NCBI GenBank assembly: GCA_023150835.1
Contig: JAKLKB010000026.1
Location: 1-57,885 of the forward strand
DNA length: 57,885 nt
Reading direction: 5' to 3'
Source of the DNA: Myxococcota bacterium
GTDB taxonomy: Bacteria; Myxococcota_C; UBA6777
In this document: positions 35,401 to 56,350 of the stretch, in pieces
How the letters are laid out: each line of letters opens with the position of its first letter
How positions within the stretch are numbered: the first letter of the stretch is position 1
Translations under genes and position numbers: made by a program
Notes under the pieces: model-generated
Seen by the model: only the letters and a program-made list of their open reading frames with translations
Databases searched by the model: none
What the model was told of the DNA's origin: nothing

Positions 35401-35506
35401 CCGAACAGAAGTCGGCCAACTGCGGGGGTGGGTGCTTGGAGACGAACAAAGTATCGGGTTATTGGAAGCGTTTGTGCGGTTTATACGATATCCAAGTGAT
35501 GTGTGA
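32459..35506 (+). CDS. SEC-C zinc-motif protein with helical repeats, coiled coil and HEPN-like C-terminal domain
   Basis: KIGPNETCPCGSGKKYKRCC at the N-terminus (TTG start after GGAG), TPR-like helices and a K/E/Q coiled coil. The C-terminus has FSRVVE and LRNRASH (RxxxxH). Confidence 0.8.
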   Translation: MLRKIGPNETCPCGSGKKYKRCCMRNEREENAQTEGREADFIPTTEYAEAMRMLLQESSSPSEISPKLAALFSSTSDLPDYSALKPFQPTALLPSIEPKWRPLPERLLKNQAYSKELLRLLHPEQQRYLWIISEQMNQQTPKAWEQALALLQKIPLAERCKLRGLFLSELNALSSLGRRDAYLQTLLSALLTEGDPFFWFDMGGHLLRLSNEFQQTIPLPTQEIILLCKALQEKIPEQSSPVLRMFLLHCASFFPEFYQELSEKHRIPRLLAEAWRVEHFFPQSPLYGYLLSALVYTTQRLVSVCDLLASWTESLKVGRFLWKRLIEETVGSLHGLFLLLDKQGEPETILAICRELLSIYPNDPHLHYWRGRLKTEEKHSKEKAESFGIVMRQASKLPSICLYEVALWWLSNKEIPPDVWASLQSFEAAIAEEISLQTFFLRMGVLFFRYVRHGEDEDLLQKIEPLLVTYGELPGVTRYAYEHLVMMGRFAEIEPILVHAWEENKAENAFAGALLAVGWASRGETERVRALFASEAEATTYLESLPLVGSQLPQRFELAWGASQLRSGDEAQGMRWLEKVYAQQKDHETALAFLEALFQRLGLLKQSAKDEDNEAFARLSLRFEAISAHLQSTRKEPPQLVFLLCLYHILREEWETARTFLNKIDTAVFDADPSMHPLGFLLYTLTHAGCGEWEEAARAALRFFPTVMERKELQDIFHQFFIGLVDAYAEQQKHATKLERKIQKQEAQGNVLSSLQEEKAKLKQILRKISSEKGTLQKALFDIHQTIQYPEKKQNEHENLLEKKVEEFKKRHQILLREFPYNHREMLLQAERLWWQSALSPRDDHAPVALQFSRVVEWAINHYWVDPLMAFALERGQMLADLPACRSRLLPAQNRLTLGDALRLFYMEVVREKDGKEERQKNAHANEALRILLAAYWSERATPASAQNEQAARYLQEEAVFVLTDLLRLRNRASHAGAILSRTEVGQLRGWVLGDEQSIGLLEAFVRFIRYPSDV

Positions 35507-35610
35507 TCGCAATGTCGATGCGATCCGCTGTAATGGTGATGCGGGTGGCGTCTCCCTGATTTGATGAAAAACATTCGGTAGCTCTAGGAGAATAGGCGAA
35601 GTGTCCGAGT

Positions 35611-35635
35611 GTTAGCCCCCTGTGGCTGCCCCTAC
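35611..35635 (-). repeat. Degenerate GTAG-family REP element
   Basis: Reverse complement GTAGGGGCAGCCACAGGGGGCTAAC, sharing its core with 11849..11874. Confidence 0.65.
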
Positions 35636-35714
35636 ACCGTTACGGTCACACGAAGGGCGGATTTCGTATGAGTCGGTCCAAAGAACAGCAAGGACTTGGA
35701 ATGGAGCTGATCAC

Positions 35715-36107
35715 TCAAAGAGCCGTGAGCTGGCCCAAGACGCTGCTGGTGATATGGAGAACCCACGTCTGGAAATCTTCTTCCGAGATATCTTGCAATT
35801 CTTTACACGAAGGCTCGATAAAATGCTCCAAGAGGATCTCTTGATCGAGAGAACGTTTAAGGAATTGTTGGCAAGCGCTGCGTTCGCAGCGATGGTGACA
35901 TCCAGCAAGACCGATGAGGGACTTGGCTTGGCGGGCGAGTTGAAGAGCGTGAGGTAATTCGGCCATCAGAGGGACGAGATCGATGATATCGATATCGTCG
36001 ATCTGTTCGCGCAAAAGTTGTGCGACGCGTTGAGTGAGTTGGCCGCGTAGCGTATGCCCATTGCAAGGGACAAGGATCACAGAAGCAGCAGAAACAGACG
36101 GAGGCAT
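35715..36107 (-). CDS. DGC-like (putative zinc-binding) protein
   Basis: VILVPCNG..GQL and LIGLAGCHHRC match the DGC pattern (CxG..GQ; I.IDGCxxxC). Confidence 0.7.
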   Translation of the reverse strand: MPPSVSAASVILVPCNGHTLRGQLTQRVAQLLREQIDDIDIIDLVPLMAELPHALQLARQAKSLIGLAGCHHRCERSACQQFLKRSLDQEILLEHFIEPSCKELQDISEEDFQTWVLHITSSVLGQLTAL

Positions 36108-36145
36108 CGGGGACTCCTAAGGAAGAAAGAAAGCAACCATGCACC

Positions 36146-36538
36146 TTAAAGAGAGACAGCTTTGTGCGTGATCAACAAAGAGGCGAGTTTGGTCAGCCCT
36201 GCTTGTGTGACACAAGAGCGCAAGCCGCCGACTTGATGGGCTTGAGGCGGGAGCGCGGCTTGGGTTTCTTCGGCACAACTCGCACAGACATAGATCTGCC
36301 CGCCCGCTTCTTCGAAAAGTTTGGTGTAGATATCGAGTCGATCAAAACCGGGGATATGGATGCTTTGAAGAACCGATTCAAACGCCCAGATCGCAGCTTG
36401 TGCGTGCAAAAAGACGACAACTTCTTCGCCCATCGCTTGGAGAGAAACCGCCAAAGCAAAGGCCAATGTCGCACGAGAACCACCGTCTTCTTGGCCGTGT
36501 GTCAGGACGATGAGATGCCCTTTGGGTGTTTTTGTCAT
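36146..36538 (-). CDS. DsrE-family protein (CxxC)
   Basis: LIVLTHGQED..RATLAF..VVFL..GGQIYVCASC. Confidence 0.88.
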   Translation of the reverse strand: MTKTPKGHLIVLTHGQEDGGSRATLAFALAVSLQAMGEEVVVFLHAQAAIWAFESVLQSIHIPGFDRLDIYTKLFEEAGGQIYVCASCAEETQAALPPQAHQVGGLRSCVTQAGLTKLASLLITHKAVSL

Positions 36539-36547
36539 AGATAATCC

Positions 36548-36931
36548 TTAAAAAACAGTAACTTGTCCTTTAATCATAATCTCTGCGACACTGGAGAGGC
36601 CGGCATAATGGGCACCTTTGCGCAGCGATTGGCGAAAAGCGTTGCTGTCCATGGTGGGAAGAAAACAATAAGCATCCAAGCAAGGCGAACACACAAGCAC
36701 GGGTCCGCCTTGTTCGAGATAAGTGCTGAGATACGTTGCGAGCGTGGGTTCGTCAGCGAGTTGGACATCTTCGCCCGTCCCTTCAAAAGCCCACCGGGTA
36801 CCCGAGAGAGTCAGAAAAATACTTACATGGCAGTCCATGGCTTGTAAAGCAAGAGCGAGTTTGGTTCCAAGCAAAGCGGCTTGACCGCCGTCTTCGCGAC
36901 CGCGTGTGATGATGATCAGATGAGGTTGCAC
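36548..36931 (-). CDS. DsrE-family protein (CxxC), paralogue of the adjacent gene
   Basis: LIIITRGRED..VSIFLT..GGPVLVCSPC. Confidence 0.88.
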   Translation of the reverse strand: MQPHLIIITRGREDGGQAALLGTKLALALQAMDCHVSIFLTLSGTRWAFEGTGEDVQLADEPTLATYLSTYLEQGGPVLVCSPCLDAYCFLPTMDSNAFRQSLRKGAHYAGLSSVAEIMIKGQVTVF

Positions 36932-36961
36932 AGGAGACTCCGTAGGAACGGGAAAAAGCGC

Positions 36962-37552
36962 TCAAACCACAAAGAACAGCTTGGATTGGACGGCATCTCC
37001 GAGACAAGAAGTCACACCCGCACACTGGAGATTGGGAAGACCCATGATATCTTCTTCGGTGAAGCCCATGATCTCCATGGTCAGCGTGCAGATGGTGAAC
37101 TTGACACCTGCTTCGACAGCCATATCCATCAGTTGCGGCAAAGAAGAAGAACCCGCTTTTTGCATAAAGTGGCGCATCATCATGGCTCCCATGCCGCCGA
37201 AATTCATTTTGGAGAGGCCGACGCGTGCGGGGCCTTTGGGCATCATCCATCCCATCATACGAGAAAGAAAAGATTTTTTTCTTTCAGGCAAAAGGCTTCC
37301 TTTTTTTCCAAGCGCAGGTTGATGTTTGTCTCGGCGCAAAAGATTCAGTCCCCACAAAGCAAAGAAGATATTGACTTCGAGGCCCATCGAACGGGCGGAC
37401 ATGGCGAGCATAAAAGCGAGAAAGACGCGATCAAAGTCGTCGCTCGATAGCAAGATCGTCATCTGTTGGTTATCCGCAGCAGCGGCATTCATGGCCTTGC
37501 TTTGCATGGCTTGGGCGAGTTGTCGTGCCAAAGAGTCCGAAGAGACAGACAT
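36962..37552 (-). CDS. DsrE/DsrF/DrsH-like (DsrE2/YrkE-type) protein
   Basis: SDDFDRV, IFFALWGLNLLR, LSKMNFGGMG and GVKFTICTLTMEIMG. Confidence 0.92.
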   Translation of the reverse strand: MSVSSDSLARQLAQAMQSKAMNAAAADNQQMTILLSSDDFDRVFLAFMLAMSARSMGLEVNIFFALWGLNLLRRDKHQPALGKKGSLLPERKKSFLSRMMGWMMPKGPARVGLSKMNFGGMGAMMMRHFMQKAGSSSLPQLMDMAVEAGVKFTICTLTMEIMGFTEEDIMGLPNLQCAGVTSCLGDAVQSKLFFVV

Positions 37553-37594
37553 AGGAGGCTCCTTTGAAGGAAATCGGCTTGATTCACCGATGGA

Positions 37595-39139
37595 TCAGGG
37601 CTTGTGCAACCAAGCGTGGTACACATGGCCTTGTTGTTTTTCTTTTTGGACGATGTATCCGTGGATATCGCACCAGGCTTTGAGATCGACAGGAAAAGCA
37701 GGGTCGTCGGCGCTGACTTTCAACGGGTGTTTGGGATGTTCGCGGACCTGTTTGCTAAGCTGAACGATGGGCATAGGACATTTGAGTCCGCAAAAATTGA
37801 GGGGGATCGGTTCGGGGGCAAGATCTTCAAAAGAGTCGCTGGAAGCGGAAAGATGCGAAAGGCCGTCAGGAGGAAGCGAAAACGATCCAGAGCTGGTAGG
37901 TTGCGTTGCGTTTGAGGCGAGAGGAACGGGAAGATCGATCAAAGAATCAATGGGGATAGGAGGTTGTAAGGTCGGCGTGCGGGTATCGGTATCGCGAGAA
38001 AACACAACGTTCCCCGAAGCTGGCGACAAGGGGCTACGAGGAGAGGGCGTAGGAGAGGAAGCGGGAAGAGAGTTGTTTCCGACATATTCTGTTGGTGGTT
38101 TCGAAGAGATCGAGGACAACGAGGAGGAGGAGGTCGAAGGGGCGGGAAGAGCGAGCCAAACCACCACAGATTGGTCGGATTGTTGGGCATGAAGAAAGCG
38201 GACGTCTTTTTGTTCGCACCAATGTTGGACGTCTTGGATGAATTGGGGATCGCGGGTTTCGATGCGCAAAAGGCCGGATTTGGTGTGTTGTTTTCGTTCT
38301 TTTTGCAAAGCGACGAGGTGAAGCGGCGAGCGTTTGTCGTTGTAATCGAGGCTCGCGAGCAACGGAAGTCCAAGTTCGCGGACAGGCGGAGGAAGAAGCG
38401 AGGTGCTTTCAGAAGCAGAAGCCAAAGCAACAGGAGAGACGGGAAATGTCGAAGCGGCGAGAAGTTCGGGAGGGACTTTGATGACAAAGGAGCTCGAAGC
38501 AGGCGCAGGGATCACAGGAGGCTTTTTCGCGAAGTGTAGTCGCACACGAAAAGGCAAAGCGTCGGGTGAGGAGAGCCATTCGACACGCGCTTCGCTGCGT
38601 TCTGCCCATGCTTTCAGATCTGCTGGAAAAGCCCGATCATCGGCCATGATATCCAGTGCGGTGGGATTGCTTTTTCGGACATACGCCGAAAGCCGAACGA
38701 TCGGCATCGGACACTTGAGTCCGAGATAATCCATGGATTCGATCGCTGCGTTTTCTGCGCGGGCAGAAGAAAACACCAAGCGACAAAGGGCAGAAACGGT
38801 CTTCTCGATCTCTTTTTGCAAAAGCCCCACAGAAGAAAAGTCGGGCGTGAACAACACCGCGTCAGGTGGGCGAAAAGAGTCCATTTGTGCCTTGGTATCT
38901 TCGATCGAGCGGCTGGTTAAGACCACGAACGCATGGGCCAAAACGAGTCGACGATGTGCGTACAGATTGTTTTTTTGAAGAGCTGCGAGGTCGATCAAGA
39001 CGACCGAAGCGGGCAAGATCTGGTGCAGTTCCTTCGCAGACAGAGCATTTCCGTATTGTAAAACGGCGACTTCTTCTTGCGTGACAGGCGGGAGTCCAAG
39101 CCACTGCGAGAGCGTGTGATAAGCTTGTTGAGATCTCAT
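37595..39139 (-). CDS. Multi-domain sulfur carrier: Cys-less DGC-like N-terminus plus three TusA/SirA domains
   Basis: DYLGLKCPMPIV..ADDRAFPADLKAW; a degenerate DYNDKRSPLHL..TRDPQFIQDVQHW; and NFCGLKCPMPIV..ADDPAFPVDLKAW. Confidence 0.88.
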   Translation of the reverse strand: MRSQQAYHTLSQWLGLPPVTQEEVAVLQYGNALSAKELHQILPASVVLIDLAALQKNNLYAHRRLVLAHAFVVLTSRSIEDTKAQMDSFRPPDAVLFTPDFSSVGLLQKEIEKTVSALCRLVFSSARAENAAIESMDYLGLKCPMPIVRLSAYVRKSNPTALDIMADDRAFPADLKAWAERSEARVEWLSSPDALPFRVRLHFAKKPPVIPAPASSSFVIKVPPELLAASTFPVSPVALASASESTSLLPPPVRELGLPLLASLDYNDKRSPLHLVALQKERKQHTKSGLLRIETRDPQFIQDVQHWCEQKDVRFLHAQQSDQSVVVWLALPAPSTSSSSLSSISSKPPTEYVGNNSLPASSPTPSPRSPLSPASGNVVFSRDTDTRTPTLQPPIPIDSLIDLPVPLASNATQPTSSGSFSLPPDGLSHLSASSDSFEDLAPEPIPLNFCGLKCPMPIVQLSKQVREHPKHPLKVSADDPAFPVDLKAWCDIHGYIVQKEKQQGHVYHAWLHKP

Positions 39140-39330
39140 CACACCCCCCATTCAGACGAGACGGACAGACGCAAAAGAGAAGAATCCCACAAGATGCGCG
39201 AAATGCGGCGGCTGCAATCGATCCTGCAAGGCGAAACCTCGATGAAGGGAAGTCTCCGTGAGTGTTGCGAGATGTGGCCGCAGCAACGGTGGGCCGTAGG
39301 ATGCAGTGAAGACATAACGGTATCCTCGGA

Positions 39331-39813
39331 TTATCGGGTTTCAAGGTGCAAAATATATTCATCGCCATGAAGGGCATCTCGATCGTCACAAGAGACACGA
39401 AACGGCAATTGTACCGAATCAAGCGCACCTTCGATCAGTAAAGCCAAGACGTTTTCGGTCGGGAGTCCCATCTGGCGACGTGCAGGAAACAACACCCGAC
39501 TGATCATGCAACGCATCACAAGGATCGAAGGACGCGCATGGATATCGGTCTGCGCCAGTTCAAAAACACGGACGAGACCGAGAACACTGAAGACCTCGGC
39601 CAGTTGTTCTAGCGCAGCCATCAGATCGCGTTCGAGCGGGAGTTGGCGGGCGAGAGAGGCCCCCCACTGGCGCAAGATGGCGCGATATTGATCGATCGTC
39701 AGGACTCCTTGATCGATGCTTTCCATCAGGCTGCGAAGAAAAGAGAAGAAAACCTCGTTGCCGCCGGCATAAGCAAGTCGTTGTGATTGGGAGGGTTGTT
39801 GCGAAACGCTCAT
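39331..39813 (-). CDS. Hypothetical protein, V4R/MetOD1/BcsD-like fold suspected
   Basis: ATGA overlap with the upstream gene. Pattern FLRSL.E..D....ILRQWGASLA..L..L..LG....ILVMRC..LIEGAL. Confidence 0.55.
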   Translation of the reverse strand: MSVSQQPSQSQRLAYAGGNEVFFSFLRSLMESIDQGVLTIDQYRAILRQWGASLARQLPLERDLMAALEQLAEVFSVLGLVRVFELAQTDIHARPSILVMRCMISRVLFPARRQMGLPTENVLALLIEGALDSVQLPFRVSCDDRDALHGDEYILHLETR

Positions 39814-41363
39814 GGCGAATCCTTCGGTGGAGAGTGTGGAGTGGGGACACAAACGCGTTGAGGTTGTTTGTTTTTTCGATGGAGTGGGACTTCGATGCAC
39901 GTTGTTCCGACACGACAGCCCTGTTTGGGGAAAAGCCGAAAGTCGCACTGCGTCATACACAACCCCCCTTTGGTGATCGGCAAGGGATCAACGTAAGGAG
40001 CCAAAGCCTCGGCACGGATACAAGAAGACGGCGCGTGCCAAGGATTCGTCGAGCGCGGACACCACGCCAAGCAATAACGAGTGCAGTATCCGCCTTTTGG
40101 AACAGGCAAGCACATCGGTTTGGTGTAGCCACAAGACTGTTGCGAAGTGCAAAGTCCTCCGATCCAACCTTGGTTGACCATCTGACTGCGCAAAAGATGG
40201 GCAGCGTCGACAGGTGAAGGCTTCGGAGAGGCTGGAGGCTTCGGAGGCGTCGGAGGATTCGAGGTGGGACGATCCGAAGTAGGCGGTTGCACAACAGAAG
40301 AGGCGACATCGGTCAGCGGCTTTTTTTCGGGCGGCGTCGTGTTGGGCTTTTGTGCGACGGTGGCAGACGCATGAAGTGGTCGTGCTGACGTTGCTTCGGG
40401 CCCTATCGTGGATGGCTTTTGGGTCGAAGAAGCATCGGAGGGGCGAAGCGCGCTGGGTCGCGGTGGTTCGGGCGGTTTCGTTCCAAGAGAAAGACGAGAA
40501 AGAGGCGGATGTTTCGATGTTGTCGAAGAAAAAGGAATCGGAAAAGGAGAGGCGAAACGCCACCAGATCGCCGCAGTAAGCAAGAAGACGATGAAAAGGC
40601 CCATATAGCGGGTCTTTTTACGAGCTTTGACGGCTTGATCTTGGAACAGTCCAGTTTGCGGCCCCGAAAAACGCGCCACCGAAACAGAAGGCGCGGGATT
40701 TGGCGGGAAAACATCGTTGCGTGGAGTTGTGGCAGATCTCGGATCTGCCGAAGGAGTTGTCGTCACGGCGACGGATACAGGTGCGGTGGTCGACGCGGGC
40801 GCAGAAGCGACAGAAGCCGCACGAGCGGAAGATGGGGCGGGAAGGAGAAGGTGGCGCTGTTCAGGCAAAGAGGGCAGGTCGACAAAGCGCCGTCGTTTGG
40901 GCGAAAAAGCGGCAGGAGGTAAAAAAGCGGGAGTGTGCGGGACTTGCGGGATCAAGGCCGAATACGAAACGACCGCATCTTCGAGGGAACGGAGTTGGCT
41001 TTCAAAGGGGGCATCTGGGGCAAGGATCACTTCGCGTTCGACGGGAGCAACGTGCGCAAGCAGCTTTTTGGGGCAATTGTCCTTGCATCCAGCCACGCTG
41101 ACGCGGGCTTGTGCGCACTCGTAGCGATGTTGGGTCCCGGGGCCTTTGTGAAAGATCAAGGGCGGGATGGAATAAATGCACGCAAGATGTGGTGATTGTC
41201 GTTGCGCGAGGGCTTGCACGATCCGCCCGATTTGTGGGTTTTTGTCGCAACCATCGCAAGGAACGATCGCGACTTCTTCGGTGGTGGTAGGGGGAATCGC
41301 CAGAAGCGACCAGCGGCTGCGCGAAGACTCTGGTGTGGACATGGAATGCCTTTCTTGGGCCAA
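39810..41363 (-). CDS. Membrane protein: DGC-like N-terminus, Pro-rich linkers, one TM, Cys-rich C-terminal domain
   Basis: IVPCDGC..GRI..VAGCKDNCPKK, the TM YMGLFIVFLLTAAIWW, and WIGGLC..C..C..GGYCTRYC..CP. Confidence 0.78.
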   Translation of the reverse strand: MAQERHSMSTPESSRSRWSLLAIPPTTTEEVAIVPCDGCDKNPQIGRIVQALAQRQSPHLACIYSIPPLIFHKGPGTQHRYECAQARVSVAGCKDNCPKKLLAHVAPVEREVILAPDAPFESQLRSLEDAVVSYSALIPQVPHTPAFLPPAAFSPKRRRFVDLPSLPEQRHLLLPAPSSARAASVASAPASTTAPVSVAVTTTPSADPRSATTPRNDVFPPNPAPSVSVARFSGPQTGLFQDQAVKARKKTRYMGLFIVFLLTAAIWWRFASPFPIPFSSTTSKHPPLSRLSLGTKPPEPPRPSALRPSDASSTQKPSTIGPEATSARPLHASATVAQKPNTTPPEKKPLTDVASSVVQPPTSDRPTSNPPTPPKPPASPKPSPVDAAHLLRSQMVNQGWIGGLCTSQQSCGYTKPMCLPVPKGGYCTRYCLAWCPRSTNPWHAPSSCIRAEALAPYVDPLPITKGGLCMTQCDFRLFPKQGCRVGTTCIEVPLHRKNKQPQRVCVPTPHSPPKDSP

Positions 41364-41369
41364 CCCGCC

Positions 41370-43316
41370 TTACCCTTTTTCAGGGGGAGGATAAAAGGAT
41401 TGTAGTTGCGCGAGAAGCTTGAGATCGAGTTGCCGTTGCATACTTCGCTGTAGCGGGCCTTTGTGCGCACGTACAAAAAAATGAGCATTGTGCCAACCAA
41501 GGAGAGTTTCGAGAGCTTCTTCTCCACACGTCGAGCCGAGGCGAACATCCAAGATATCCTCGCCTTGGCTATAAAGCATGGCTTGGAGCGAGTCGTCTGT
41601 TTTCAAAAAATGCGTACAAAAGATGCCGTCATGTTCGCTTAAAGTGCGCAATAATTGAGAAAGATGGATATGGCGAAGCTCTCCCTGTAACAGCGTTTCT
41701 TCTGGAGAGATTCCAAGATAATTCGCGGAAGAAGACATACTTCGTTCTAGTCGAATATTTTCCCCTTCGAGCTGCGAATTCTTCAGTTGCAATTCTTCGA
41801 TGATCTGTGTGGCATGGAGATTTGCGTCCGCAAGCGCGCTCAATCGGTCGCGTAATTCGGCTTCTTTGACGCTGCTATGTTCTACGTTGCGTTGCAAAAG
41901 TTGCAGGCGTTGGATGGTCGCAGAGCTTTGTTCGAGCACTCGCAAGCGCTCGTGGATATCGGAGAGGGAAGGACGCCCGAGATGGACAGTGCTGATCCCA
42001 CACAGTTCGATCGCCATGCGCAAGAGTTCAGGCTGGGCCTCTGCGAGAACAAGCACTTTGTGGACATCGTGAAAATCTTTGAGGGCTTGGAGAAAGGGAT
42101 GTTCGAGGGCGACATGAAGGCCACCAAAGATCACACCGGCGGGGACGCGTTGTTGGGAGAGGAGTGCGCGGAGCGCTTGATGGATCTGGTCGTTGTTTTC
42201 GAGCAGTTGGATCTGATAGCTTTTTTGGTTTGACCAAGGATCGACAAGGCGGCGGATCAAGGATTCGTCGAAAAGAGCATCATTGGCGAGGAGATAAACG
42301 ATGGGGCGGCGTTGGGCTTGGAGCAAAGGTGAGCTTTGTGTGAAGGAACGAGCGAAGATGCCCGAAGATTGGGCAGATGAAGCGTTGGAGGCGGGTTGGT
42401 TGGGCTGGGCGACAAATTGGCGAACACAATCTGCGGTGATGCGTCGAAGTTTCTCTTGGGTTTGAGGAAGGATGCAAGCTTCTAAGGCATCGAAAAAAGC
42501 GCGTGCGTGGGGGTAACGTTTCGTGGGTTCGGGAGAAAGAGCACGTTGAACGATCGCGGCGAGAACAGGGTCGATCTGTGGAATGACTTCTTGGATGGGT
42601 GCAAAGTTCGGATCCATCGCAGACTGTAAAGCACGCCATGAATGCTCGCGAGCAAAAAGAGTTTGTCCCGTTAAACCTTCATAAAGTAATATGCCTAAAG
42701 TATAAAGATCAGAGCGATGATCGACGACTTCCCCACGCGCTTGTTCGGGGGAAAGATAGCCAAACTTACCTTTGATCGTGCCGGGTTGAGTCTGATGAAG
42801 CTGATCGCGGAATCGTGCAAGCCCAAAATCCGCCAACTTCACATGGCCTTCTCGGGAGAGCAGGAGATTGTCTGGGCTGATATCGCGATGCACAAGGTTC
42901 ATGGGTTCGCCATGTTCGTCTTTCAGGTGGTGCGCGTAATCAAGAGCCAACAAAGTCTGCATCACGATATAGATCACCACTTCGGGCGGGATCCCGTAAC
43001 GCGCTCGAATCAACGAAGACACCGTACACCCATCCACATACTCCATAACGATGGCGTACTCTTGCTCAAGGCGCTCAAATGACCAAAAAGACACGATGTT
43101 CGGGTGATTGAGATAAATCGAGAGGCGAGCTTCGTTCATCAAACTGTTCATGAGTTCCGAAGATTGCGACCATTGCGCGGGAAGCTTTTTCAACACCACT
43201 TGCTTTTGAAAGCCTTCGACACCTTCGTAAGCCGCAAGGTACGTCACCCCCATCCCCCCTGCACCAAGCAACGCCTTGAGAGAATAAGAGGAAGACGTTT
43301 TTTCGGTGTTTTTCAT
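41370..43316 (-). CDS. Ser/Thr kinase plus degenerate receiver domain, coiled coil and DUF4388/PATAN-like domain
   Basis: [22 protein letters not shown] and GKFGYLSPEQ motifs. The C-terminus reads LQGELRHIHLSQLL..GEEALETLLGW. Confidence 0.9.
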   Translation of the reverse strand: MKNTEKTSSSYSLKALLGAGGMGVTYLAAYEGVEGFQKQVVLKKLPAQWSQSSELMNSLMNEARLSIYLNHPNIVSFWSFERLEQEYAIVMEYVDGCTVSSLIRARYGIPPEVVIYIVMQTLLALDYAHHLKDEHGEPMNLVHRDISPDNLLLSREGHVKLADFGLARFRDQLHQTQPGTIKGKFGYLSPEQARGEVVDHRSDLYTLGILLYEGLTGQTLFAREHSWRALQSAMDPNFAPIQEVIPQIDPVLAAIVQRALSPEPTKRYPHARAFFDALEACILPQTQEKLRRITADCVRQFVAQPNQPASNASSAQSSGIFARSFTQSSPLLQAQRRPIVYLLANDALFDESLIRRLVDPWSNQKSYQIQLLENNDQIHQALRALLSQQRVPAGVIFGGLHVALEHPFLQALKDFHDVHKVLVLAEAQPELLRMAIELCGISTVHLGRPSLSDIHERLRVLEQSSATIQRLQLLQRNVEHSSVKEAELRDRLSALADANLHATQIIEELQLKNSQLEGENIRLERSMSSSANYLGISPEETLLQGELRHIHLSQLLRTLSEHDGIFCTHFLKTDDSLQAMLYSQGEDILDVRLGSTCGEEALETLLGWHNAHFFVRAHKGPLQRSMQRQLDLKLLAQLQSFYPPPEKG

Positions 43317-43603
43317 CGCAAAACTCCATCAACAGGTTGTGAGTCAAGGAAAAAGGCTTGTCTCCAAACGCCTGTTTGACCGTAATCATCATAGAACTTA
43401 CGCAGTTGGAGGGTTGATGTAGAGTTCCACCCCGCACCTGTCTGCTTTACAGGTGTTGTCGAAACGACACAAGAACCCCTCAAAGAAAAACACGCTCGTT
43501 CAAGAACACAGACCCGCAAGACAGAGGCAAAGCAACGTCCTCGCCTCGAAAAAGCCATCGAGAAAAGCGTAACTCCTGCATAAAAACGGGGATGACGAAA
43601 CCG

Positions 43604-44791
43604 TCATCGATAAGGGAACGGCGAAACGCCGACAAAAAGCGTGTGAGTATAAAGCAATGCGACGTACACCACGAGGGCGGCAGAAAGGCGGAGAAGAGAA
43701 ACATCCTTTCGTGTGAGGCGCGTTCGCCCTTGAATGACCGCCAAGAAAGGAAGGGCGGAAGTTTGTTGCGCAAAGGCTTGCCATGCCTCGCCCTGCGTTG
43801 CGCGGCGGCGAGCATCGATGTGCGCCATGCCGACGAGGGCAAGAAACGTCACACTTCCAAAAAGGATGACACTCGCGAGATCGCCGTTGGTGGGGATATG
43901 CAACATCCCCCAAAGCGCAAACGACCAAAGAGACGGATGGCGCGTGATCTTGAGGATACCTTGGACGGCGTCTTGTGCAGAGAGTCGATTTTCTTGTCCG
44001 GCAGTCGTGGGACTTGGGGTACTGACGCCCAACACAAACAACACACACACCACAGGCATCCCCAAAAGCGGCAGATAACGCGTCCATGCAGGTGCCACCC
44101 AAAGCTCGACATACGGCGCAGAAGACCAGCCCCACGACATCCACAGCATCGCAGTCAAGGCGATGATCGAATACAAGCCTTGAAAAGCGCCGTTTCCAAG
44201 GCGGTCGCTCAAGCGGCGGCGAACAGCCAAGCTAGAAAGCCCGAGATGACCGAAGACAAAGAGCAGCGCACCGAGGATCACATGCCAAAGGCTTACTGTC
44301 CCCTTAGTTCGGGCTTCTTGGAGCTTTTGAGGTTCGGAAAGATCGCGTAAGACAGCGAGGATCGCTTCTTCTTCTTGTGCGGCCAGCCGATACGCGGGCA
44401 TCACAGGAGCATACCCTTCGCGGATCTCGGATTGCGGTTCACGCAGCGCACGCAACAAAGCCTCGCGATCGGCGATCGCATGGAGGCGTTTTCCGCCGCG
44501 CTGGATGGCGCGAGGCTTGTTCCATAGCCCCGCCAATCCCGGCCCGATATGGCGATCGAGATCAAGGCGATGGCAGCCAGTACAACCTTGTTGAACCAAG
44601 ACCTTGCGGCCCAGTACAAGGTGTTCTTTGCGGCGGATCGAAGAGGCGAGGTCAGATCGCGTAGGTTGTTTTTGCGCGGATTGCGCGGGCGGTTTTTGCG
44701 TGGATTGTGCAAGAGCCTCGGCCCATCCACCTCCGATGAAACCCACCCACCCACCCACCAAGACAAGATACCTCATGCCAAGATTTCGCAT
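43604..44791 (-). CDS. Cytochrome c-NnrU fusion protein
   Basis: Signal peptide, heme motif CTGCH, GPGLAGL and GY..VMP (Met ligand), then NnrU-like GLYSIIAL, ITRHP, HIPTNGD, HIDARR and TSALPF. Confidence 0.85.
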   Translation of the reverse strand: MRNLGMRYLVLVGGWVGFIGGGWAEALAQSTQKPPAQSAQKQPTRSDLASSIRRKEHLVLGRKVLVQQGCTGCHRLDLDRHIGPGLAGLWNKPRAIQRGGKRLHAIADREALLRALREPQSEIREGYAPVMPAYRLAAQEEEAILAVLRDLSEPQKLQEARTKGTVSLWHVILGALLFVFGHLGLSSLAVRRRLSDRLGNGAFQGLYSIIALTAMLWMSWGWSSAPYVELWVAPAWTRYLPLLGMPVVCVLFVLGVSTPSPTTAGQENRLSAQDAVQGILKITRHPSLWSFALWGMLHIPTNGDLASVILFGSVTFLALVGMAHIDARRRATQGEAWQAFAQQTSALPFLAVIQGRTRLTRKDVSLLRLSAALVVYVALLYTHTLFVGVSPFPYR

Positions 44792-44872
44792 CGTGAACTC
44801 CCAAACCTTTCGCAGGACTTCGTCTCAACAAACACCAACAAGCAAAGCTCGATATCCGTCCCAACGCAAGGG

Positions 44873-46918
44873 CTAAAAGGAATCTCCCTCGGGGAGACTC
44901 CATTCTGTCGAAGAAGAAGTGCGATGCGCCTCGTCCATGCGGCGCAAAAGATCCAACAAAAGCTGATCCGTGCGTTTGTGGATCGTCGTTTCAACCCCCG
45001 CAGGAAGGGCTTGTAGCATAAAATGCGCGTCTGACCAACGGAGCAAAAGCTCGATCACAGGCTCTCCACGCAACACCCCATAACAAGCATCCACCACTTC
45101 GCCTTTTTCAAAAAACAGGGATGCTTGATGAGGATCTTCTTTGCGGATCAAGGAGACGCACGCGCTTTTTCGGCTCAAGTTGAGCAACTGGAAGATATCA
45201 GTCAGCGACATCTCACGAAGTTCACCACGCATAAAACAGCCCGAACGATGGGCTTGCATCTCTTCGGTAAGCAAAGTGCGCGAGATGCGTTCGAGAAAAT
45301 GATCTTTGGCTTCAAGTTCTTTGTTTTTGGCATTAAGTTCTTCAAGAAGTTGAACTGCTCGGATATTGGCCGCAGCGAGCGCGTCGACCCGCGAACGCAT
45401 CTCGATCTCGATTTGGCTGCTGCTTTCCAGACGTTTTTGAAGCATATGCAAACGATCGGAGCTTTGGTGCGTGTTCAAAAAAGAGTGGAGGTGTTCCTGA
45501 ATCCCATCCAGCGTCAAGGGAGCCTGCAACGTGGCCGTCACGCCGCAAAGTTCGACGGCCAATTCGACGATCTCAGGTTGGGGTTGATCGAGAACCAACA
45601 GCTTCGCGATATGGGGATGACTTCGCAGCGCCGCAAGAAAGGGATGTTGCAAAGCCACTTGCAAACCAGCAAACAAGACACCGTCCGGCACACGATGAAG
45701 GTTTTGAAGTGCATCTATCGCACGAGAGCTATCCGCCTTGTCTCGCAAGATCTCGAACTGATAAGCCTTGCGCCCTTGCCATGGGTTGGCGATTTGATTG
45801 CAGAGGCTTTCGGGAAAAAAAGAGTCATTGTGCAAGAGATAGATCAGCGGCTTTTGATGATGTTCAGAAAGAATAGCATGATGCGTTTGTGAAGTTTGTC
45901 GCATAGAATTCACAGAAGGATCCGATTGAACCAAAACAACCTTTTTCTTGTTTTGTAGTGTACTTAACCAACCAGAAGAAGTTTTTTTATGCTCTTCAAA
46001 TCTCTTTTCTGCGAGAAAAGTATGCAGTTTTTCTTCGAGAAGCCGTCGCATTTTTTCGAGGCTCCAAGGTAAAACAAAGACTTCAAGCGCATCATAAAAA
46101 GACCAAGCATTTTGGAAGCGCTGTTCAGGATCGGATTGAAGGGATTTGTGAACGATATCGATCAAGGACGGGTGAAGTTGGGGGGCCGCTTCGTGGAGAG
46201 GTGGGATGGCACCTTTTGCAGAGAGTTGAAGCATCTGGAGCGGGTGTTCTGCTTGGTAAAGACGGCACCCCGTCAAGCCTTCGTACAACAAGATGCCCAC
46301 AGCGTAGAGATCCGCACGCTGGTCGAGTCTTTGGCCGCGTGCTTGCTCGGGGGACATATAGCCGTATTTGCCTTTGATGGTTCCGGGCTGAGTTTTATCG
46401 AGTTGATTGCGGATCTTGGCAAGACCAAAGTCGGTCAGTTTGGCAAAGCCATTGTGGGCCAAGAGCACGTTGTCTGGGCTGATATCTCGGTGGACGAGAT
46501 GCAGGGGGCGTCCGTTTGCGTCTGTTCGTTTGTGAGTGTAATCAAGGGCCAGCAAAAGCTGCATCACAACGCACAAAACAATCTCTGGTTCGAGCCGTTC
46601 GGTATTTTGCATCCAAAAAGACAGAGGGCAACCATCGATATACTCCATCACAAGGGAGTATTCATTTTCTTCGTGGAGCAAGTCGTAGATGGAAACGATG
46701 TGCGGATGATCGAGCATCACCGCCAGCCGAGCCTCCGAGATCAGGGCATCGACCATCATCGGATCATGCGTCAGGTTGGGATGCAAGCGTTTCACGACCA
46801 CTTGTTTTTCAAACCCCTCGCTCCCTTCGTACGCAGCGAGGTAAGTGACACCCATGCCACCCGCCCCCAACAATCTCTTGAGTTGATAACGCTTCGCGGA
46901 TCGCAGAGCAGACACCAT
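44873..46918 (-). CDS. Ser/Thr kinase plus degenerate receiver domain, coiled coil and DUF4388/PATAN domain (paralogue of 41370..43316)
   Basis: [17 protein letters not shown] and [10 protein letters not shown] motifs, then [39 protein letters not shown] at 46918 after GGAG. Confidence 0.92.
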
Positions 46919-47044
46919 ACGATTCTTCTCCTGATTCTCTTTTAAAAACAAACTCTTGTGTCGATTTTCGACATTCATCCGCACCGTCGCGCCATGCACC
47001 GCGCCAACACACGCACAAAGATACGGCACCTTCAAAAACTTTCT

Positions 47045-50000
47045 TCACAGATGTTCGATCCAAGCCAAGCGTTGGGCGTGTTGATGGCAACGCCTCCAAT
47101 TTTCCTGCTCAAAAACCTGTCGCACGTCCGCCTTCGCCCGCTGAAGAGATTGTTTTCGTTTGGAATCAGTGGACGCAGAAGTGGAGGCATGGGGTTCATT
47201 TTGTACCCAAGAAAAAGGTTTGGCATAAAAAGATAAAAAGTCTTCTAACCCTCTCTGTTGAAGCTGATCGAACATCGCTAAGGTTCGTACAGTATGTCGG
47301 AGATCTGGGGGGAGTTGCTTGTGGATGCGCCAAAAGCCCTTGGGATCGAGCGTTCGCGTGAATTTGGGGTCAAGACTTTTTGAGGTGGGGTGAGCGCAAT
47401 CGCGCAAGATCCAATGCAGATCTTGTCGGTTAAGGCCAAACAGGGCGGAACAAGCGGCGTCTAGCGCACTATGCAAGATCTGGCGTTGTATAGGCGTGTT
47501 TGGAAAGGCAAGCAGAGGGTCGATCTCAGGGAAGTGTTGCGGGATCTCTTGCTGCCATCGCAACCAAAAAGGGGCGTGCTGCACGCCTGCGAAACACAAG
47601 CGCGCACAGATCATGCCCAACCACCCCGTGACCGGAGCGCGAAGCGCAGGGAGGCGCGTTTCTGCCATCAAAAAGGCATTGAGGTTGGTTCCAACAAGAC
47701 GATGGCGCAAAAGCCAGTCGTAGATCAAAGAACCCATCAGCGCGGTATGCGCAAGCAAGGCAGGGGTGGGAAAGTCAAGCTGTGGTGCCGCAAACAATCC
47801 GATCGAATTTCCACATGGATAGGACGAAGTCAGACAAGAAACGATCAAAGCCCGTTCGTTGGTGGCGTTGCTGAGGGCGCGAAAAGCGATTCGAGGCGCG
47901 TGTTGAGCCTTGGGCCATTCGCGATAAAGTGAGGGCGGAACAAAGAATTGGGACTGCGGTGGAGCAAGCGGATCATGGCGTACCCATCGGCTTCGATAAC
48001 CTGTGCCTCCCCAATAAGCCGCTGCGTTGTGGCTATAGTCGTACAGCATCGCGCCCTGATAGAGCGGCAAAAGGATATCTTCGCAGCGCAACGAAGACAA
48101 CGACATCACCGAGCCTCCATCCGCAGAAAGGATCTGCTCAGGATCAAGGTCGGCTTGGCGTTCGTCGAGCTGCACAGGAGAAAGCGTCTTTCGCGCAGAC
48201 ATCGAATTTTTGGACATGGCTTTCCATACACCACGCAGTCGATGACCGTACAATGTGGGTTTGAAACCTTGGGCCTCGGCTTGCTCGCAAGACAGAAAAT
48301 GCCGACTGTGCGAAGTCATATTGAATTCGCCTTGTTGATACACCAGCGGGAAGTGCGCTTGTGCTTTGGGTAACGGCTCGGTATGTTCGATGATCTTGTC
48401 GAGAAGCTCGATGTCTCGGGGATGTTGGAGTTCAAAAAAGCACAAGCTATGTGGACTCAGCGCTTGGATGCGCTTTTTGGGATAGGGCTGCGCGTGTTCT
48501 TCGGCGTGTGCCCAGTCCTCAAGGGTTCGCTGCATAAAAGCCGTTTGGACTTCCTTGGTGCGACCGCCTTTTTGCAAGATCACCGCGCAAAATTTGAAAC
48601 GCGGATCGATGGCAAACAAACTCGATCGGTTTTCAAAAGAAAACAACCACTTCCATCGGCAGCGAGAAAGAAACAATCGCCGCAGTGCATCGGCTCCTTT
48701 GTCGCTGTAAAGACTCGCAGGGACAAGCATCGCAAGATGTCCATCGCTTCGCAAAAGATGATACGCCAGTTCCAAAAACAGCTTGTATGTATAGGGCTTG
48801 CCTTCTCCTTGGTAGCGGAACGGTGTGGGTAAGGCCGCATTTGTGGGGGCTTTGCGATCGTTGTGTCGGGTTGCGCGGTCTTGGTGTTGGGCTTCGTGGC
48901 CATCGCATTGTGTTTCGTGGCCTTTGCGTTGTGTATTTCGCGACATTGGATGTTTGAGCCATCGAGCGATCTGCTTGCAATCGTCTTGTTGTTGTTTCCA
49001 CAACACAGCCAGATGCGGATCGTCAGCAAGCAAGGCACTCTGACAGACAAGTGCCTGTTGTTTGCGCAAGAGCCGAAACGATGGGGCAACAGCAGAGAAA
49101 AATTCGCGAGCGTTGGGTTGCAAGGTTTCCCAAGGCGGATTGCCCACGATCATATCAAAACCCCGTTGCGACGGGGAAAAGATTTCAGGGAACGCCAAAG
49201 GCCAATGAAAAAAGTTGTATGTTTTGGCGATCCGCTGCGATATCTCTTGCGTCATCACGGGCCAAGAAGACAACGGATGCTCAAACATCGCGGAGGTTGG
49301 GGCATGTAGGCGCTGCGCTTCGGGCCAAAACCACAAAGCGCAGCGTGCGTCTGTATACTGCCATGCCATCGAGCTTTCCGAATATTCAGGCCAAGAGCTT
49401 ACGGCAAAAGATGGATCATCCGATCCTGACAAAGCGTGTTCTGAGATCTTTCCCGTGTATCGGGAGTTCGCAAAGATATGGCTTGGCTCGCTCTCGCTTT
49501 CCAAAGAGGGCAGACTGCCCAACAACGCATCGCCACACCGCAGATGCACCGTCAGTTCGGCAAACGGCATCTGCGGATCTCCCACCGCCAACCAAAGCCC
49601 AAAACGTGCGATCTCTACAGCCAAAGGATCGCGATCCACACCATACAAACAAGAACGCACGATACAGCGGCGGATCTTGACTTGCTCTCCCTCTCCCACC
49701 GACACAATCCGATGTTCTTGCTCTCCCTCTCCCACCGATGCGAAATGGTCAGAAGGTCGGGCACTTTGCGCATCGTTTTCGTTTGGACAAGCAGCGGCAC
49801 GTTCGCAAGAAGCCTGTTGGATCGCAGAGGTGATGCAATCCAACGCCGCCAACAAAAAAACTCCCGCTCCCATCGCAGGATCACAGACTTTTATCGAAAA
49901 AGCCGTCGCACGATCTTTTTGCTCTGGATCAAGTTGCGCCCAAGCCCGCTGCACCGTCAATTCTGCAAGGCGCGGCTCCGTGTAAAAAGTACCGCCGCCC

Positions 50001-50878: not shown

Positions 50879-51047
50879 GAGACAAAACCGTGGGCCTTGC
50901 GAAGGGCCTCTTGCGTTAGAAAAGAACAGAGGGATAGCTTCGTGGCGAAAATTCTTGATTGCAAGAGGATGACTCTTTTTTAGGGCAGGCGCAAGATCGT
51001 GCGAGGTGGTCAACATGGGCAAAAGAAAAGCCAAAGGAGTGACAAGG

Positions 51048-56213: not shown

Positions 56214-56350
56214 GACAACAGAGGATGTCACGCAAATGAAAAGTGTAAGAGTATTCCCACTCTAAGACCCTGAAGAATACAAAACCACCTAAGGACCGGA
56301 TTCCACAAACTTCCAACAACACAACATCTGAGATGCAAAGGAAAAAAACG

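Follow-up and report, generated by a model that had tools for sequence, protein, structure and literature searches.

Gene organization of the locus

The window analyzed here is a stretch of 57,885 nucleotides of DNA from a Myxococcota bacterium, in which positions 35715 to 46918 carry ten co-oriented genes, all on the minus strand. Open reading frame calls and Pfam searches confirmed all ten, with the domains named in a preliminary description of this DNA, and the short gaps reported there (6 bp, an ATGA overlap, then 42, 30, 9 and 38 bp) are exact. Three larger gaps were absent from that description: 81 bp between kinA and the cytochrome c gene, 287 bp between the cytochrome c gene and kinB, and 179 bp between the V4R-like gene and the TusA gene.

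The first gene, kinA (44873..46918, minus strand), encodes a soluble Hanks Ser/Thr kinase with a C-terminal DUF4388 domain (Pkinase 136 bits, DUF4388 60 bits), and its open reading frame extends on to a TTG at 47035. The kinase domain, in which all catalytic motifs are present, is followed by a middle domain of ∼120 amino acids, a coiled coil and DUF4388. The middle domain is conserved in eight of eight aligned kinases and contains an invariant histidine and an invariant cysteine. The other kinase, kinB (41370..43316, minus strand; Pkinase 132 bits), is from the same subfamily, shares ∼41% identity with kinA over ∼650 amino acids and ends 6 bp upstream of the gene for a DGC membrane protein. 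Between the two kinases lies a cytochrome c-NnrU membrane protein (43604..44791, minus strand; NnrU 154 bits), which has a CTGCH motif and a Cytochrom_C score of 18.7, under the cut-off of 21.3. A terminator-like hairpin with a T-run (43591..43608, minus strand), found by consensus scan only, sits at the stop codon of this gene and may mark the boundary between a kinA/cytochrome c unit and a kinB-to-DGC unit. The region holds 24 such sites compared to 15.7 ± 4.0 in shuffled sequences, and the hairpin is therefore weak evidence.

Non-kinase proteins of the cassette

Downstream of kinB are seven genes, and cysteines are a conserved feature of each of the proteins that they encode. The first is a single-pass membrane protein (DGC-TM; 39810..41363, minus strand), described here from an alignment of five orthologues. 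Its N-terminal, cytoplasmic DGC-like domain scores 21.7 bits, under the DGC cut-off of 27; its cysteine residues align nonetheless, four of them being invariant (C36, C39, C93 and C97). A low-complexity linker, a transmembrane helix and a Pro/Ser-rich linker then lead to an outer domain of ∼110 amino acids with 12 invariant cysteines. This cysteine-rich module recurs in a predicted lipoprotein with an Extensin-like_C domain, which places it outside the cytoplasm.

The start codon of the V4R-like gene (39331..39813, minus strand) overlaps the DGC-TM stop codon (ATGA). Its 160-amino acid product has no Pfam or NCBIfam match and contains one invariant cysteine, at position 103 of an alignment whose first row is longer by one residue at the N-terminus. 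The structure model (pLDDT 84.6, pTM 0.80) and Foldseek searches with it, which returned TRAPPC3 (6aq3; E = 2.7e-5, TM = 0.58), BcsD (E ∼1e-4) and the phenol sensor PoxR (E = 2e-3), predict a Bet3/V4R/BcsD fold. The protein families of the cassette are rare; for the V4R-like family there are 19 representatives in 1.84 billion proteins, none of them fused to another domain.

The next gene (37595..39151, minus strand) fuses a DGC-like domain to three TusA domains (106 bits in three stretches) through Ser/Pro-rich linkers, and thus ties DGC to TusA. In this genus the DGC-like domain is degenerate, having lost its cysteines, and a motif scan finds the CPMP cysteine in two of the three TusA domains, with a serine in the middle one. 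The orthologues in genomes G003 and G004 retain four cysteines in this domain, and the latter has six TusA stretches by Pfam, five of them with CP[ML]P. A DsrE2-type protein follows (36962..37552, minus strand; DrsE_2 143 bits), with two invariant cysteines in its alignment (C155 and C183) and only 58 bits to the NCBIfam DsrE2 equivalog model, for which the cut-off is 210. Two DsrE family proteins come next: DsrEa (36548..36931, minus strand; 36 bits), with an invariant CSPCxxxxC motif (C81, C84 and C89 in five aligned orthologues), and DsrEb (36146..36538, minus strand; 37 bits), with an invariant HGxEDGG motif and CxxC (C85 and C88 in 17 aligned homologues). The best solved relative of DsrEb is 3mc3 (E = 3e-4), and C85 aligns with the cysteine of the YVC motif of that structure. 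The last gene encodes a small DGC protein (35715..36107, minus strand; 44 bits) with four invariant cysteines in its alignment (C15, C70, C74 and C79), whose model (pLDDT 90.5) has a generic flavodoxin-like α/β fold and no specific match.

Conservation in related genomes

Comparison with relatives reduces the ten genes to a conserved unit of eight, in the order kinase, DGC-TM, V4R-like, DGC-TusA(n), DsrE2, DsrEa, DsrEb and DGC. This order is kept in three genera (G001 and G002, which share a genus, G003, where the cassette is split over two short contigs, and G004). The comparative evidence as a whole draws on five related genomes from a single family, and these do not count as independent. 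Upstream genes vary: this window has a type IIG restriction-modification (RM)-like gene, G003 an MscS-like gene and G004 a divergently oriented GTPase gene. Since the order and the orthologous kinase recur in two other genera with different flanks, the arrangement goes beyond chance. Start and stop codons overlap within the cassettes of G003 and G004, as at the DGC-TM/V4R junction of this window; the orthologous kinase overlaps the DGC-TM gene by ATGA in G003 and is separated from it by 48 bp in G004. The bacteria with this cassette form a rare group; they are Myxococcota-like and have large genomes.

One kinase subfamily accompanies the DsrE and DGC genes in all three carrier genera, the opposite of what would have refuted the preliminary proposal (kinases never found with these genes elsewhere), and its middle domain is found in five of the six genomes of the family, exactly those five with the cassette. 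In the sixth, G005, the middle domain was not found, and DsrEb, the V4R-like protein and DGC are likewise lacking. Searched against this genome, the cassette kinase of G004 matches kinA best (401 bits over 528 amino acids) and kinB second (358 bits), while the next, unrelated kinase reaches 226 bits over the kinase domain only. G004 also encodes a second kinase of the subfamily at a separate locus, whose surroundings are free of cassette genes for about 8 kb; the subfamily thus also occurs away from the cassette.

The “twin” kinases of the preliminary description are not ancestral, as a single kinase stands at the cassette in G003 and G004; the second kinase is a duplication within the genus, kinA being the genus-specific paralogue of kinB. 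The cytochrome c-NnrU protein, also counted there as a component, proves to be an accessory insertion between the kinases, outside the conserved cassette: among the six family genomes NnrU occurs in G000 and G001 only, and the corresponding position in G002 is a 690-bp gap with no open reading frame. The fusion is a member of a family already present in Myxococcota, the nearest Atlas cluster (67 members, 100% with NnrU and 51% with Cytochrom_C) having Myxococcota as its commonest phylum. Both the second kinase and this gene are thus late additions in the genus. The suggestion of nitric oxide sensing had this fusion as its sole basis, and is poorly supported because the gene is an insertion present in two of six genomes. 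Taken overall, the earlier interpretation is partly supported.

Genome context and expression

The cassette is the only site of TusA and DsrE domains in the genome, which is 93% complete. As described previously, Dsr, sHdr, Sox, rhodanese and thiolation genes are absent from the window, where no such domains were found in the 20 other large open reading frames, and the lack of the classical partner pathways extends to the 93%-complete genome: searches gave no DsrC and no SoxZ matches, and the only CCG protein is a two-CCG protein. Five rhodanese domains are encoded, all away from the cassette, which itself contains no sulfur-loading enzyme (rhodanese or cysteine desulfurase). The organism is present in activated-sludge libraries. 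Zero-mismatch contigs from four RNA-Seq libraries (one sample of one study), which may also contain DNA, span most of the locus and bridge the DsrEb/DsrEa/DsrE2/TusA, TusA/V4R and V4R/DGC-TM junctions; among the matches listed, none crosses the kinB/DGC-TM junction.

A possible cysteine relay with its own kinase

The cassette joins TusA, DsrE and little-known, cysteine-rich DGC proteins to a dedicated Ser/Thr kinase. This combination has not been described previously, and the statement that no known pathway has such a composition held up in a literature search, which found no paper with it. In the available text of PMC11094781, TusA and DsrE proteins hand persulfide or thiosulfonate between cysteines, and form trimeric rings.

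The function of the cassette we can only infer. The best reading, which we put forward tentatively, is that the eight genes encode a cysteine relay, likely of persulfide (sulfane sulfur), functionally tied to its own cytoplasmic Hanks kinase. The single-pass membrane protein would expose a disulfide-rich domain on the outer side of the membrane and keep a four-cysteine DGC domain in the cytoplasm, and the translationally coupled Bet3/V4R-fold protein may bind a small ligand or adduct. Sulfur or redox equivalents would pass between the conserved cysteines of the DGC-(TusA)n scaffold, the DsrE2-type protein, the two CxxC DsrE proteins and the small DGC protein. The kinase, with its private Cys/His middle domain and DUF4388, would read the loading of the relay and convert it into Ser/Thr phosphorylation. 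Conserved linkage, orthology of the kinase, the DGC-TusA fusion, the conserved cysteines, the genome context, the RNA contigs and literature precedent all favor this reading. Against it stand the abundance of kinases in the genome, the off-cassette kinase of G004, the lack of a sulfur-loading enzyme in the cassette, and the 287- and 179-bp gaps with the terminator-like hairpin. Both sulfur carriage by the cysteines and information flow from carriers to kinase we infer; disulfide redox or the binding of metal(loid)s would account for the CxxC motifs and Cys4 DGC domains as well as sulfur carriage does.

Alternative explanations

The same synteny and co-occurrence also suit a reversed relationship, which is somewhat doubtful, where the cassette mobilizes or detoxifies reactive sulfur species (persulfide, polysulfide or thiosulfonate) in a heterotroph that does not oxidize sulfur, and the kinase is only a switch. 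The kinase would act by phosphorylating either the poly-TusA and DGC-TM proteins, at their Ser/Thr/Pro-rich linkers, or another target. Such long linkers do occur in these two largest carrier proteins; however, low-complexity linkers are common in the proteins of this genome, including the neighboring type IIG RM-like protein, and are therefore weak evidence for phosphorylation sites. Detoxification would accord with a genome that has no dissimilatory sulfur acceptor, with occurrence in activated sludge, and with the proposal, in the available text of PMC11094781, that DsrE4-type proteins detoxify reactive sulfur, but the cassette contains no persulfide dioxygenase, SQR, sulfite oxidase or thioredoxin reductase for sulfur disposal.

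It is unlikely that the cysteines instead bind arsenic, selenium, tellurium, copper, zinc or mercury, in a thiol-chelate trafficking or sensing module of ars-like logic. DGC proteins elsewhere do have such company: in 30 loci their neighbors are ArsP-type permeases (11), thioredoxin/AhpC-like proteins (10), DsbD/CcdA (7), ArsR (6) and LMW phosphatase/ArsC-like proteins (2), with DsrE or TusA in none, and available text of a preprint (10.1101/2022.10.17.512643) lists PF08859 among the members of an ArsR-ArsP-ArsE operon, as a probable Zn/Cys4 protein whose function is unknown. The cassette DGC proteins diverge from these canonical ones (14–22% identity), however, and ArsR, a permease, an efflux pump, ArsC and thioredoxin are all absent from the cassette. 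The CxxC sites of DsrEa and DsrEb weakly resemble those of metallochaperones (2ew9; E = 0.56, non-significant), and one TusA domain weakly matches the selenium-linked YedF model (29.7 bits, cut-off 110), whereas persulfide is carried in the TusA family by the conserved CPxP cysteine and in the DsrE family by the conserved active-site cysteine.

That the kinases are mere neighbors of an unrelated carrier operon, or defense kinases belonging with the upstream type IIG RM-like gene, is less probable again. Pkinase matches number ∼152 in the genome, a density of about one per 50 kb, and three fall inside the window; the PADLOC type IIG REase-MTase model matches the gene upstream of kinA at 384 bits, and the kinases match the PADLOC PD-T4-6 and mad6 models at 175–231 bits. 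The 287-bp gap and the hairpin would likewise set kinA and the cytochrome c gene apart from kinB. These PADLOC and the NCBIfam kinase matches span the generic kinase domain only, however, and NCBIfam scores fall far under curated cut-offs (e.g., MADS6 130–138 bits against 460). The DGC-TM gene of both G003 and G004 has the orthologous kinase gene as its immediate neighbor, RM genes are absent from the vicinity and a tblastn search with the RM-like query gave no matches in either locus, and the kinase middle domain is present or absent together with the cassette.

Finally, an ordinary accessory sulfur-transferase set feeding rDsr, sHdr or Sox oxidation encoded elsewhere is very improbable given the zero DsrC and SoxZ matches, the single two-CCG protein and the lack of further TusA or DsrE domains in the 93%-complete genome, even though available text of PMC11094781 links TusA and DsrE2 to sHdr and rDsr, and TusA-DsrE2 adjacency is a widespread pairing, with a TusA match within 1.5 kb in five of the seven loci from other phyla found by the DsrE2 query.

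Gene content and conservation of the cassette

The region 35715-47035 contains ten co-oriented ORFs on the minus strand, encoding a kinase (kinA), a cytochrome c-NnrU membrane protein, a second kinase (kinB), a membrane protein with a DGC-like domain (DGC-TM), a V4R-like protein, a poly-TusA protein fused to a DGC-like domain, DsrE2, two DsrE proteins (DsrEa and DsrEb), and a small DGC protein. The domain labels assigned to the ten genes in the preliminary description are borne out by Pfam, and the literature searched contained no instance of this set of families, in agreement with the claim made there of a new combination. NCBIfam matches for kinase, TusA and DsrE2 all fall under the curated cut-offs and add nothing specific. 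The short gaps quoted between the genes, including an ATGA overlap, are correct, but gaps of 81, 287 and 179 bp had been omitted. Apart from these ten, the window has 20 large ORFs, and no sulfur-metabolism gene occurs among them.

In GTDB the lineage constitutes a phylum of only six species genomes, all of one family and 5–11 Mb in size, and the relatives are labelled by NCBI as Myxococcota, Myxococcales or Deltaproteobacteria bacterium MAGs. The comparative evidence for the cassette comes from five related genomes, and the ten window proteins were compared with the relatives by tblastn together with ORF and Pfam checks. All ten genes are present in G001, a genome of the same genus, and nine are present in G002, also of this genus, where cytochrome c-NnrU is missing and the 690 bp between the two kinases contain stops in all three forward frames. 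In G003, from a second genus, the genes lie on two short contigs: one carries an MscS-like gene, a single kinase (Pkinase and DUF4388) joined to DGC-TM by an ATGA overlap, the V4R-like gene, and DGC-TusA running to the contig end, and the other carries TusA, DsrE2, DsrEa, DsrEb and DGC. A tight eight-gene block is found in G004, from a third genus, in the order kinase, DGC-TM, V4R-like, six-domain DGC-TusA, DsrE2, DsrEa, DsrEb and DGC; adjacent genes overlap by 4 bp at two junctions, and unrelated genes of the opposite strand lie on either side.

The window cassette is flanked upstream by a type IIG restriction-modification-like gene and downstream by a SEC-C/TPR gene, both kept only within the genus. 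Since the flanking genes are genus-restricted and the gene order is kept in relatives, the conserved unit comprises eight genes, one kinase among them. That kinase and carriers are linked in a conserved way is established; an orthologous cassette kinase occurs in all three genera that carry the carriers, so the co-occurrence with DsrE/DGC genes proposed earlier stands. Searches for independent lineages with a DsrEb alignment returned four loci from genome contigs, all from the same family, and two from metagenome contigs, both near-copies of known ones. The type IIG restriction-methyltransferase-like gene (47045-51313, minus strand, 1422 aa), directly upstream of kinA, scores 384 bits in PADLOC, has an Eco57I domain, and contains an internal tandem peptide repeat (STEASDV/PTEASDV).

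Carrier proteins and their relation to known sulfur relays

TusA and DsrE proteins are sulfur couriers in dissimilatory sulfur oxidation, tRNA thiolation and cofactor synthesis, and the Cys of the TusA CPxP motif is the persulfide-carrying residue. The poly-TusA protein (37595-39151, 518 aa) contains three TusA stretches (PF01206; 106 bits against a gathering cut-off of 28.6), with CPMP in domains 1 and 3 and SPLH in domain 2, while the G004 protein has six Pfam stretches, of which five carry CP[ML]P. It scores 60 bits against the 78 required of the NCBIfam TusA equivalog and is therefore no equivalog. The N-terminal domain of this fusion, paralogous to that of DGC-TM, keeps four Cys in G003 and G004 and has lost them in the window genus. 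Related long poly-TusA proteins are rare, with five found in 5.8 billion sequences (8000 candidates scored).

DsrE2 (36962-37552) matches DrsE_2 (PF13686) with 143.5 bits against a cut-off of 25 and has two invariant Cys; at 58.1 bits against 210 for the DsrE2 equivalog NF047629, it is a family member and not a characterised equivalog. DsrEa (36548-36931) and DsrEb (36146-36538) match DsrE (PF02635) with 36.1 and 37.2 bits against a cut-off of 22.7. An invariant CSPCxxxxC marks DsrEa, while HGxEDGG and CxxC are invariant in DsrEb, for which a word-based search found only 17 clusters. The nearest solved relative of DsrEb is 3mc3 (E 3e-4), with the profile yvCa aligning with the active-site YVC of 3mc3, a DsrE/DsrF-like protein named DsrE3A SSO1125 in one source (PMC11094781). 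It is established that what the cassette carriers conserve is their Cys residues. We tentatively read the cassette as a persulfide-type Cys relay coupled to its own kinase as a sensing device, a reading that may be correct but whose likelihood we place somewhat below even.

The rDsr relay of Allochromatium vinosum passes through rhodanese, TusA, DsrEFH and DsrC, as outlined in the same source (PMC11094781). Both systems encode TusA together with DsrE-family proteins bearing conserved active-site Cys, and the three consecutive DsrE-family genes here recall DsrE, DsrF and DsrH. Here, in contrast, the genome has no DsrC, DsrAB or linked rhodanese, TusA is a three- to six-domain fusion with DGC, DsrE carries CxxC, and the unit also includes a Hanks kinase, a membrane DGC protein and a V4R-fold protein. 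The TusA-DsrE2-DsrE trio is likewise common to the sHdr cascade (TusA, DsrE2, DsrE3A/B/C) and the dsrE3A-dsrE2B-tusA genes of Metallosphaera cuprina, but sHdr, LbpA and lipoamide dehydrogenase genes are not nearby and there is one CCG protein in the genome. The pairing of DsrE2 with TusA is also common in other phyla (5/7 loci). We regard a kinase-regulated sulfur-handling module as a rather unlikely explanation.

A sensing device has a precedent in Hyphomicrobium denitrificans, where two sources describe ArsR-type repressors, sHdrR and SoxR, that sense sulfane sulfur with SoxT/TusA-type delivery (PMC11582611; PMC12423496). Sulfur-trafficking proteins thus act in signalling beyond catabolism, although the output there is a DNA-binding repressor, whereas the cassette encodes no HTH protein and has a Hanks Ser/Thr kinase as its sole signalling enzyme.

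DGC proteins and the V4R-like protein

The small DGC protein (35715-36107) matches PF08859 with 44.1 bits against a cut-off of 27 and has four invariant Cys, while the weak N-terminal DGC of DGC-TM (21.7 bits) and that of the G004 TusA fusion (19.6 bits) fall below the cut-off. Three canonical Cys columns are kept in the cassette DGC and the fourth Cys is displaced, with 14–22% identity to canonical members. A model of the small protein (pLDDT 90.5) has a generic flavodoxin-like fold, with the LMW phosphatase 1zgg as best Foldseek match (E 2.4e-3, TM 0.46) and a best Z of 8.7 in the VIA wide search; as modelled, the fold gives no functional lead.

DGC-TM (39810-41363, 517 aa) has a cytoplasmic DGC-like domain in which an RWS motif and the four residues C36, C39, C93 and C97 are invariant, followed by basic residues, a single transmembrane helix, and a C-terminal domain with 12 invariant Cys. 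The 12-Cys module recurs, fused to Extensin-like_C (LAS-peptidase-like), in a predicted lipoprotein elsewhere in the genome (G000:C120:21067-22455, locus L071), and its position behind a lipoprotein signal peptide places the module outside the cytoplasm. An Atlas search with this outer Cys-rich domain gave no score above 0.81.

Among 401 genomes sampled, 48 encode a DGC protein. Within 1.5 kb of 30 canonical DGC loci (27 outside the family), we found ArsP-type permeases at 11, thioredoxin/AhpC-like proteins at 10, DsbD/CcdA at 7, ArsR at 6 and LMW phosphatase at 2, with DsrE or TusA at none of the 30 and Pkinase at none. The window proteins gave one weak DGC match only in tblastn against these loci. 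An ars-like DGC context is likewise described in a preprint, which terms the function unknown (10.1101/2022.10.17.512643). The DGC Cys at the CxG and (D/A)GCxxxC positions are conserved both here and in the ArsR-ArsP-thioredoxin(ArsE)-DGC-CcdA loci, but the usual neighbours of canonical DGC are absent from the cassette. We consider it quite unlikely that the cassette is a thiol-chelate module for metal(loid)s or chalcogens. The window's genome has a second, canonical DGC protein (113 bits, G000:C70:108393-108701, locus L039); in G001 (L038) and G002 (L035) this protein adjoins a GT21 glycosyltransferase, and none of the three loci has DsrE/TusA neighbours.

The V4R-like protein (39331-39813) has no Pfam family match and one invariant Cys. 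Foldseek relates its AlphaFold model (pLDDT 84.6; modelled with one extra N-terminal residue) to TRAPPC3/Bet3, to BcsD and to the V4R domain with which PoxR binds phenol; 34 matches reach E <= 0.001, with TM values of 0.5–0.64. The sequence has no match at E <= 0.01 to PF02830, PF04051 or PF03500, with TRAPP and Cellsynth_D at E ~0.05, below their cut-offs. An exhaustive profile search of 1.84 billion proteins found 19 representatives, all at E <= 2.8e-19, 157–211 aa long and unfused. Complex prediction pairing the V4R-like protein and the DGC domain of DGC-TM was uninformative (score 0.12, mark 0.32).

The kinases and the cytochrome c-NnrU insertion

Hanks kinases are recognised by catalytic motifs that include a Gly-rich loop, VxK, HRD, DFG and SPE. 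Both kinA (44873-46918) and kinB (41370-43316) match Pkinase (PF00069; 136 and 132 bits against a cut-off of 31.7), kinA also matching DUF4388 with 60 bits, and the catalytic motifs, including LGAGGMG and SPEQ, are invariant in all eight aligned kinases. The same eight share a private middle domain (~120 aa), in which one His and one Cys are invariant, followed by a coiled coil, and all except the shorter G004 copy have DUF4388. A PDB profile search with the middle/C-terminal region returned coiled-coil noise only. The middle domain was found in five of the six family genomes; the exception is G005 (86% complete), in which DsrEb, the V4R-like protein and DGC also have no match.

Sequence identity of ~41% over ~650 aa indicates that kinA and kinB are co-orthologues from a duplication in this genus. 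The twin kinases had been proposed as a feature of the system, which does not hold for G003 and G004, where the kinase is single. Searched against the whole window genome, the G004 cassette kinase matches kinA (401 bits/528 aa) and kinB (358 bits/508 aa), and the next match has 226 bits over a 280-aa kinase domain only. Between the duplicated kinases, the cytochrome c-NnrU gene (43604-44791) matches NnrU (PF07298) with 154 bits against 24.7, and Cytochrom_C with 18.7 bits against 21.3, a CTGCH haem motif being present N-terminal of NnrU; a terminator-like hairpin lies at its stop codon. This architecture is represented in the Atlas by a cluster of 67 proteins, whose commonest phylum is Myxococcota. 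Among the family genomes, NnrU was found only in the window's genome and G001, with no ORF between the kinases of G002. The gene, earlier counted as a component, is a late insertion outside the system, and NO sensing via NnrU was dropped as an explanation.

The kinase could also be a mere neighbour of the carriers or a defence kinase. There are 152 Pkinase matches in the window's genome, so a kinase beside any given gene is unremarkable in itself, and G004 has another full-length member of the cassette kinase subfamily (G004:C95, locus L072, 8452-10407; 35% identity to kinA over 685 aa) at a locus free of cassette genes, which counts against exclusivity of the tie. In a comparison with the anti-phage kinase systems PD-T4-6, MADS MAD6 and BREX PglW, PADLOC matches cover the kinase domain only, and the NCBIfam scores lie far below the curated cut-offs (MADS6 130–138 bits against 460, PglW 54 against 990). 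Together with the conserved link to the carriers, this makes a neighbour or defence kinase very improbable. At 3844-6992 (plus strand), the window also carries a third Hanks kinase (Pkinase 180 bits) whose stop codon is overlapped by the next gene, which encodes a TPR/PEGA-domain protein.

For a persulfide-type relay feeding a kinase, mycobacterial PknG offers a partial parallel, with a rubredoxin-like motif and Cys-dependent redox control of a Hanks kinase. Conserved Cys in an accessory domain of a Ser/Thr kinase is found in both, but the PknG site is an intramolecular metal/redox site, while here a separate set of carrier proteins is encoded with the kinase.

Genome context and sulfur acceptors

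The window is contig C169 of a 7.56 Mb assembly that is 93% complete. TusA and DsrE (PF02635) matches in this genome are found in the cassette only. Searches of the assembly for SoxZ and for DsrC/TusE (PF04358), the acceptor of the DsrEFH/TusBCD complex in rDsr and tRNA thiolation, found none; there is a single CCG protein with two CCG domains, where sHdr would call for several HdrB-like copies, and five rhodanese domains and a split YeeE-like pair occur elsewhere. A classical Dsr/sHdr/Sox accessory role was dropped in view of the absent DsrC and SoxZ and the one CCG protein, and a dissimilatory accessory set is extremely improbable.

Expression

One activated-sludge sample supplied four RNA-Seq libraries, which contain 63–70% of the sampled locus words, and the RNA-library contigs show no differences from the window. 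These contigs bridge DsrEb/DsrEa/DsrE2/TusA (36496-38211), TusA/V4R (38278-39722) and TusA/V4R/DGC-TM (38912-39858); the 5′-end of kinB and the intergenic stretch between it and the cytochrome c gene are covered as well. The stretch 44873-45323 is uncovered in all four runs, and among the listed pieces none crosses kinB/DGC-TM, although such gaps in contigs are no proof in either direction. Because the contigs carry neither strand nor transcript ends and the libraries may contain DNA, they are consistent with co-transcription of the cassette but are not proof of it. A scan for sigma-70-like promoters, uninformative for this lineage, gave two sites, both on the plus strand and fewer than in shuffles, and Rfam has no match in 35000-47500.

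Just downstream of the small DGC gene, the intergenic stretch 35624-35672 contains a ~46-nt repeated element, for which blastn of 35507-35715 gives 153 genome matches including itself, many at 87–95% identity. Many different loose ends of RNA-library contigs fall exactly there; the repeat has no Rfam match and looks REP- or MITE-like.

Significance and other features of the window

The cassette parts belong to known families. The cassette is new in that it is coupled to a Hanks kinase, has a DGC-TusA fusion and a membrane DGC receptor-like protein, includes a new V4R-fold family and a new kinase accessory domain, and lies in a genome that lacks the classical acceptors. To our knowledge, the known bacterial sulfane-sulfur sensors are transcription repressors. 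The cassette could, in its most specific and unlikely form, be the first persulfide sensing pathway with a Hanks Ser/Thr kinase output instead of a repressor, in which an outer disulfide-rich/inner DGC membrane receptor would load the poly-TusA/DsrE relay, DGC would be a new sulfur-accepting or -donating module, and the Cys/His middle domain of the kinase would be the final acceptor and switch the kinase. Conserved couriers that are fused to the uncharacterised DGC domain and tied to a dedicated eukaryote-like kinase, in a genome with no classical acceptors, would bring Ser/Thr phosphorylation signalling within the reach of sulfur relays. The cassette would also give a first functional handle on the DGC domain, a new small Bet3/V4R-fold family and a new kinase accessory domain, and samples for testing expression exist because the organism occurs in activated-sludge libraries.

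Elsewhere in the window, 14359-20132 and 20379-24605 (plus strand) hold large genes for trypsin-like and matrixin-like proteases, after which comes a 1408-aa NRPS-like gene with AMP-binding, PP-binding and hexapeptide-repeat domains. Two further genes (10500-11798 and 56333-57607, plus strand) encode secreted-looking proteins with animal-type Cys-rich modules (Pacifastin, Kazal and VWC) and weak RECK FnI and Dickkopf-like matches, a content unusual in a bacterium.
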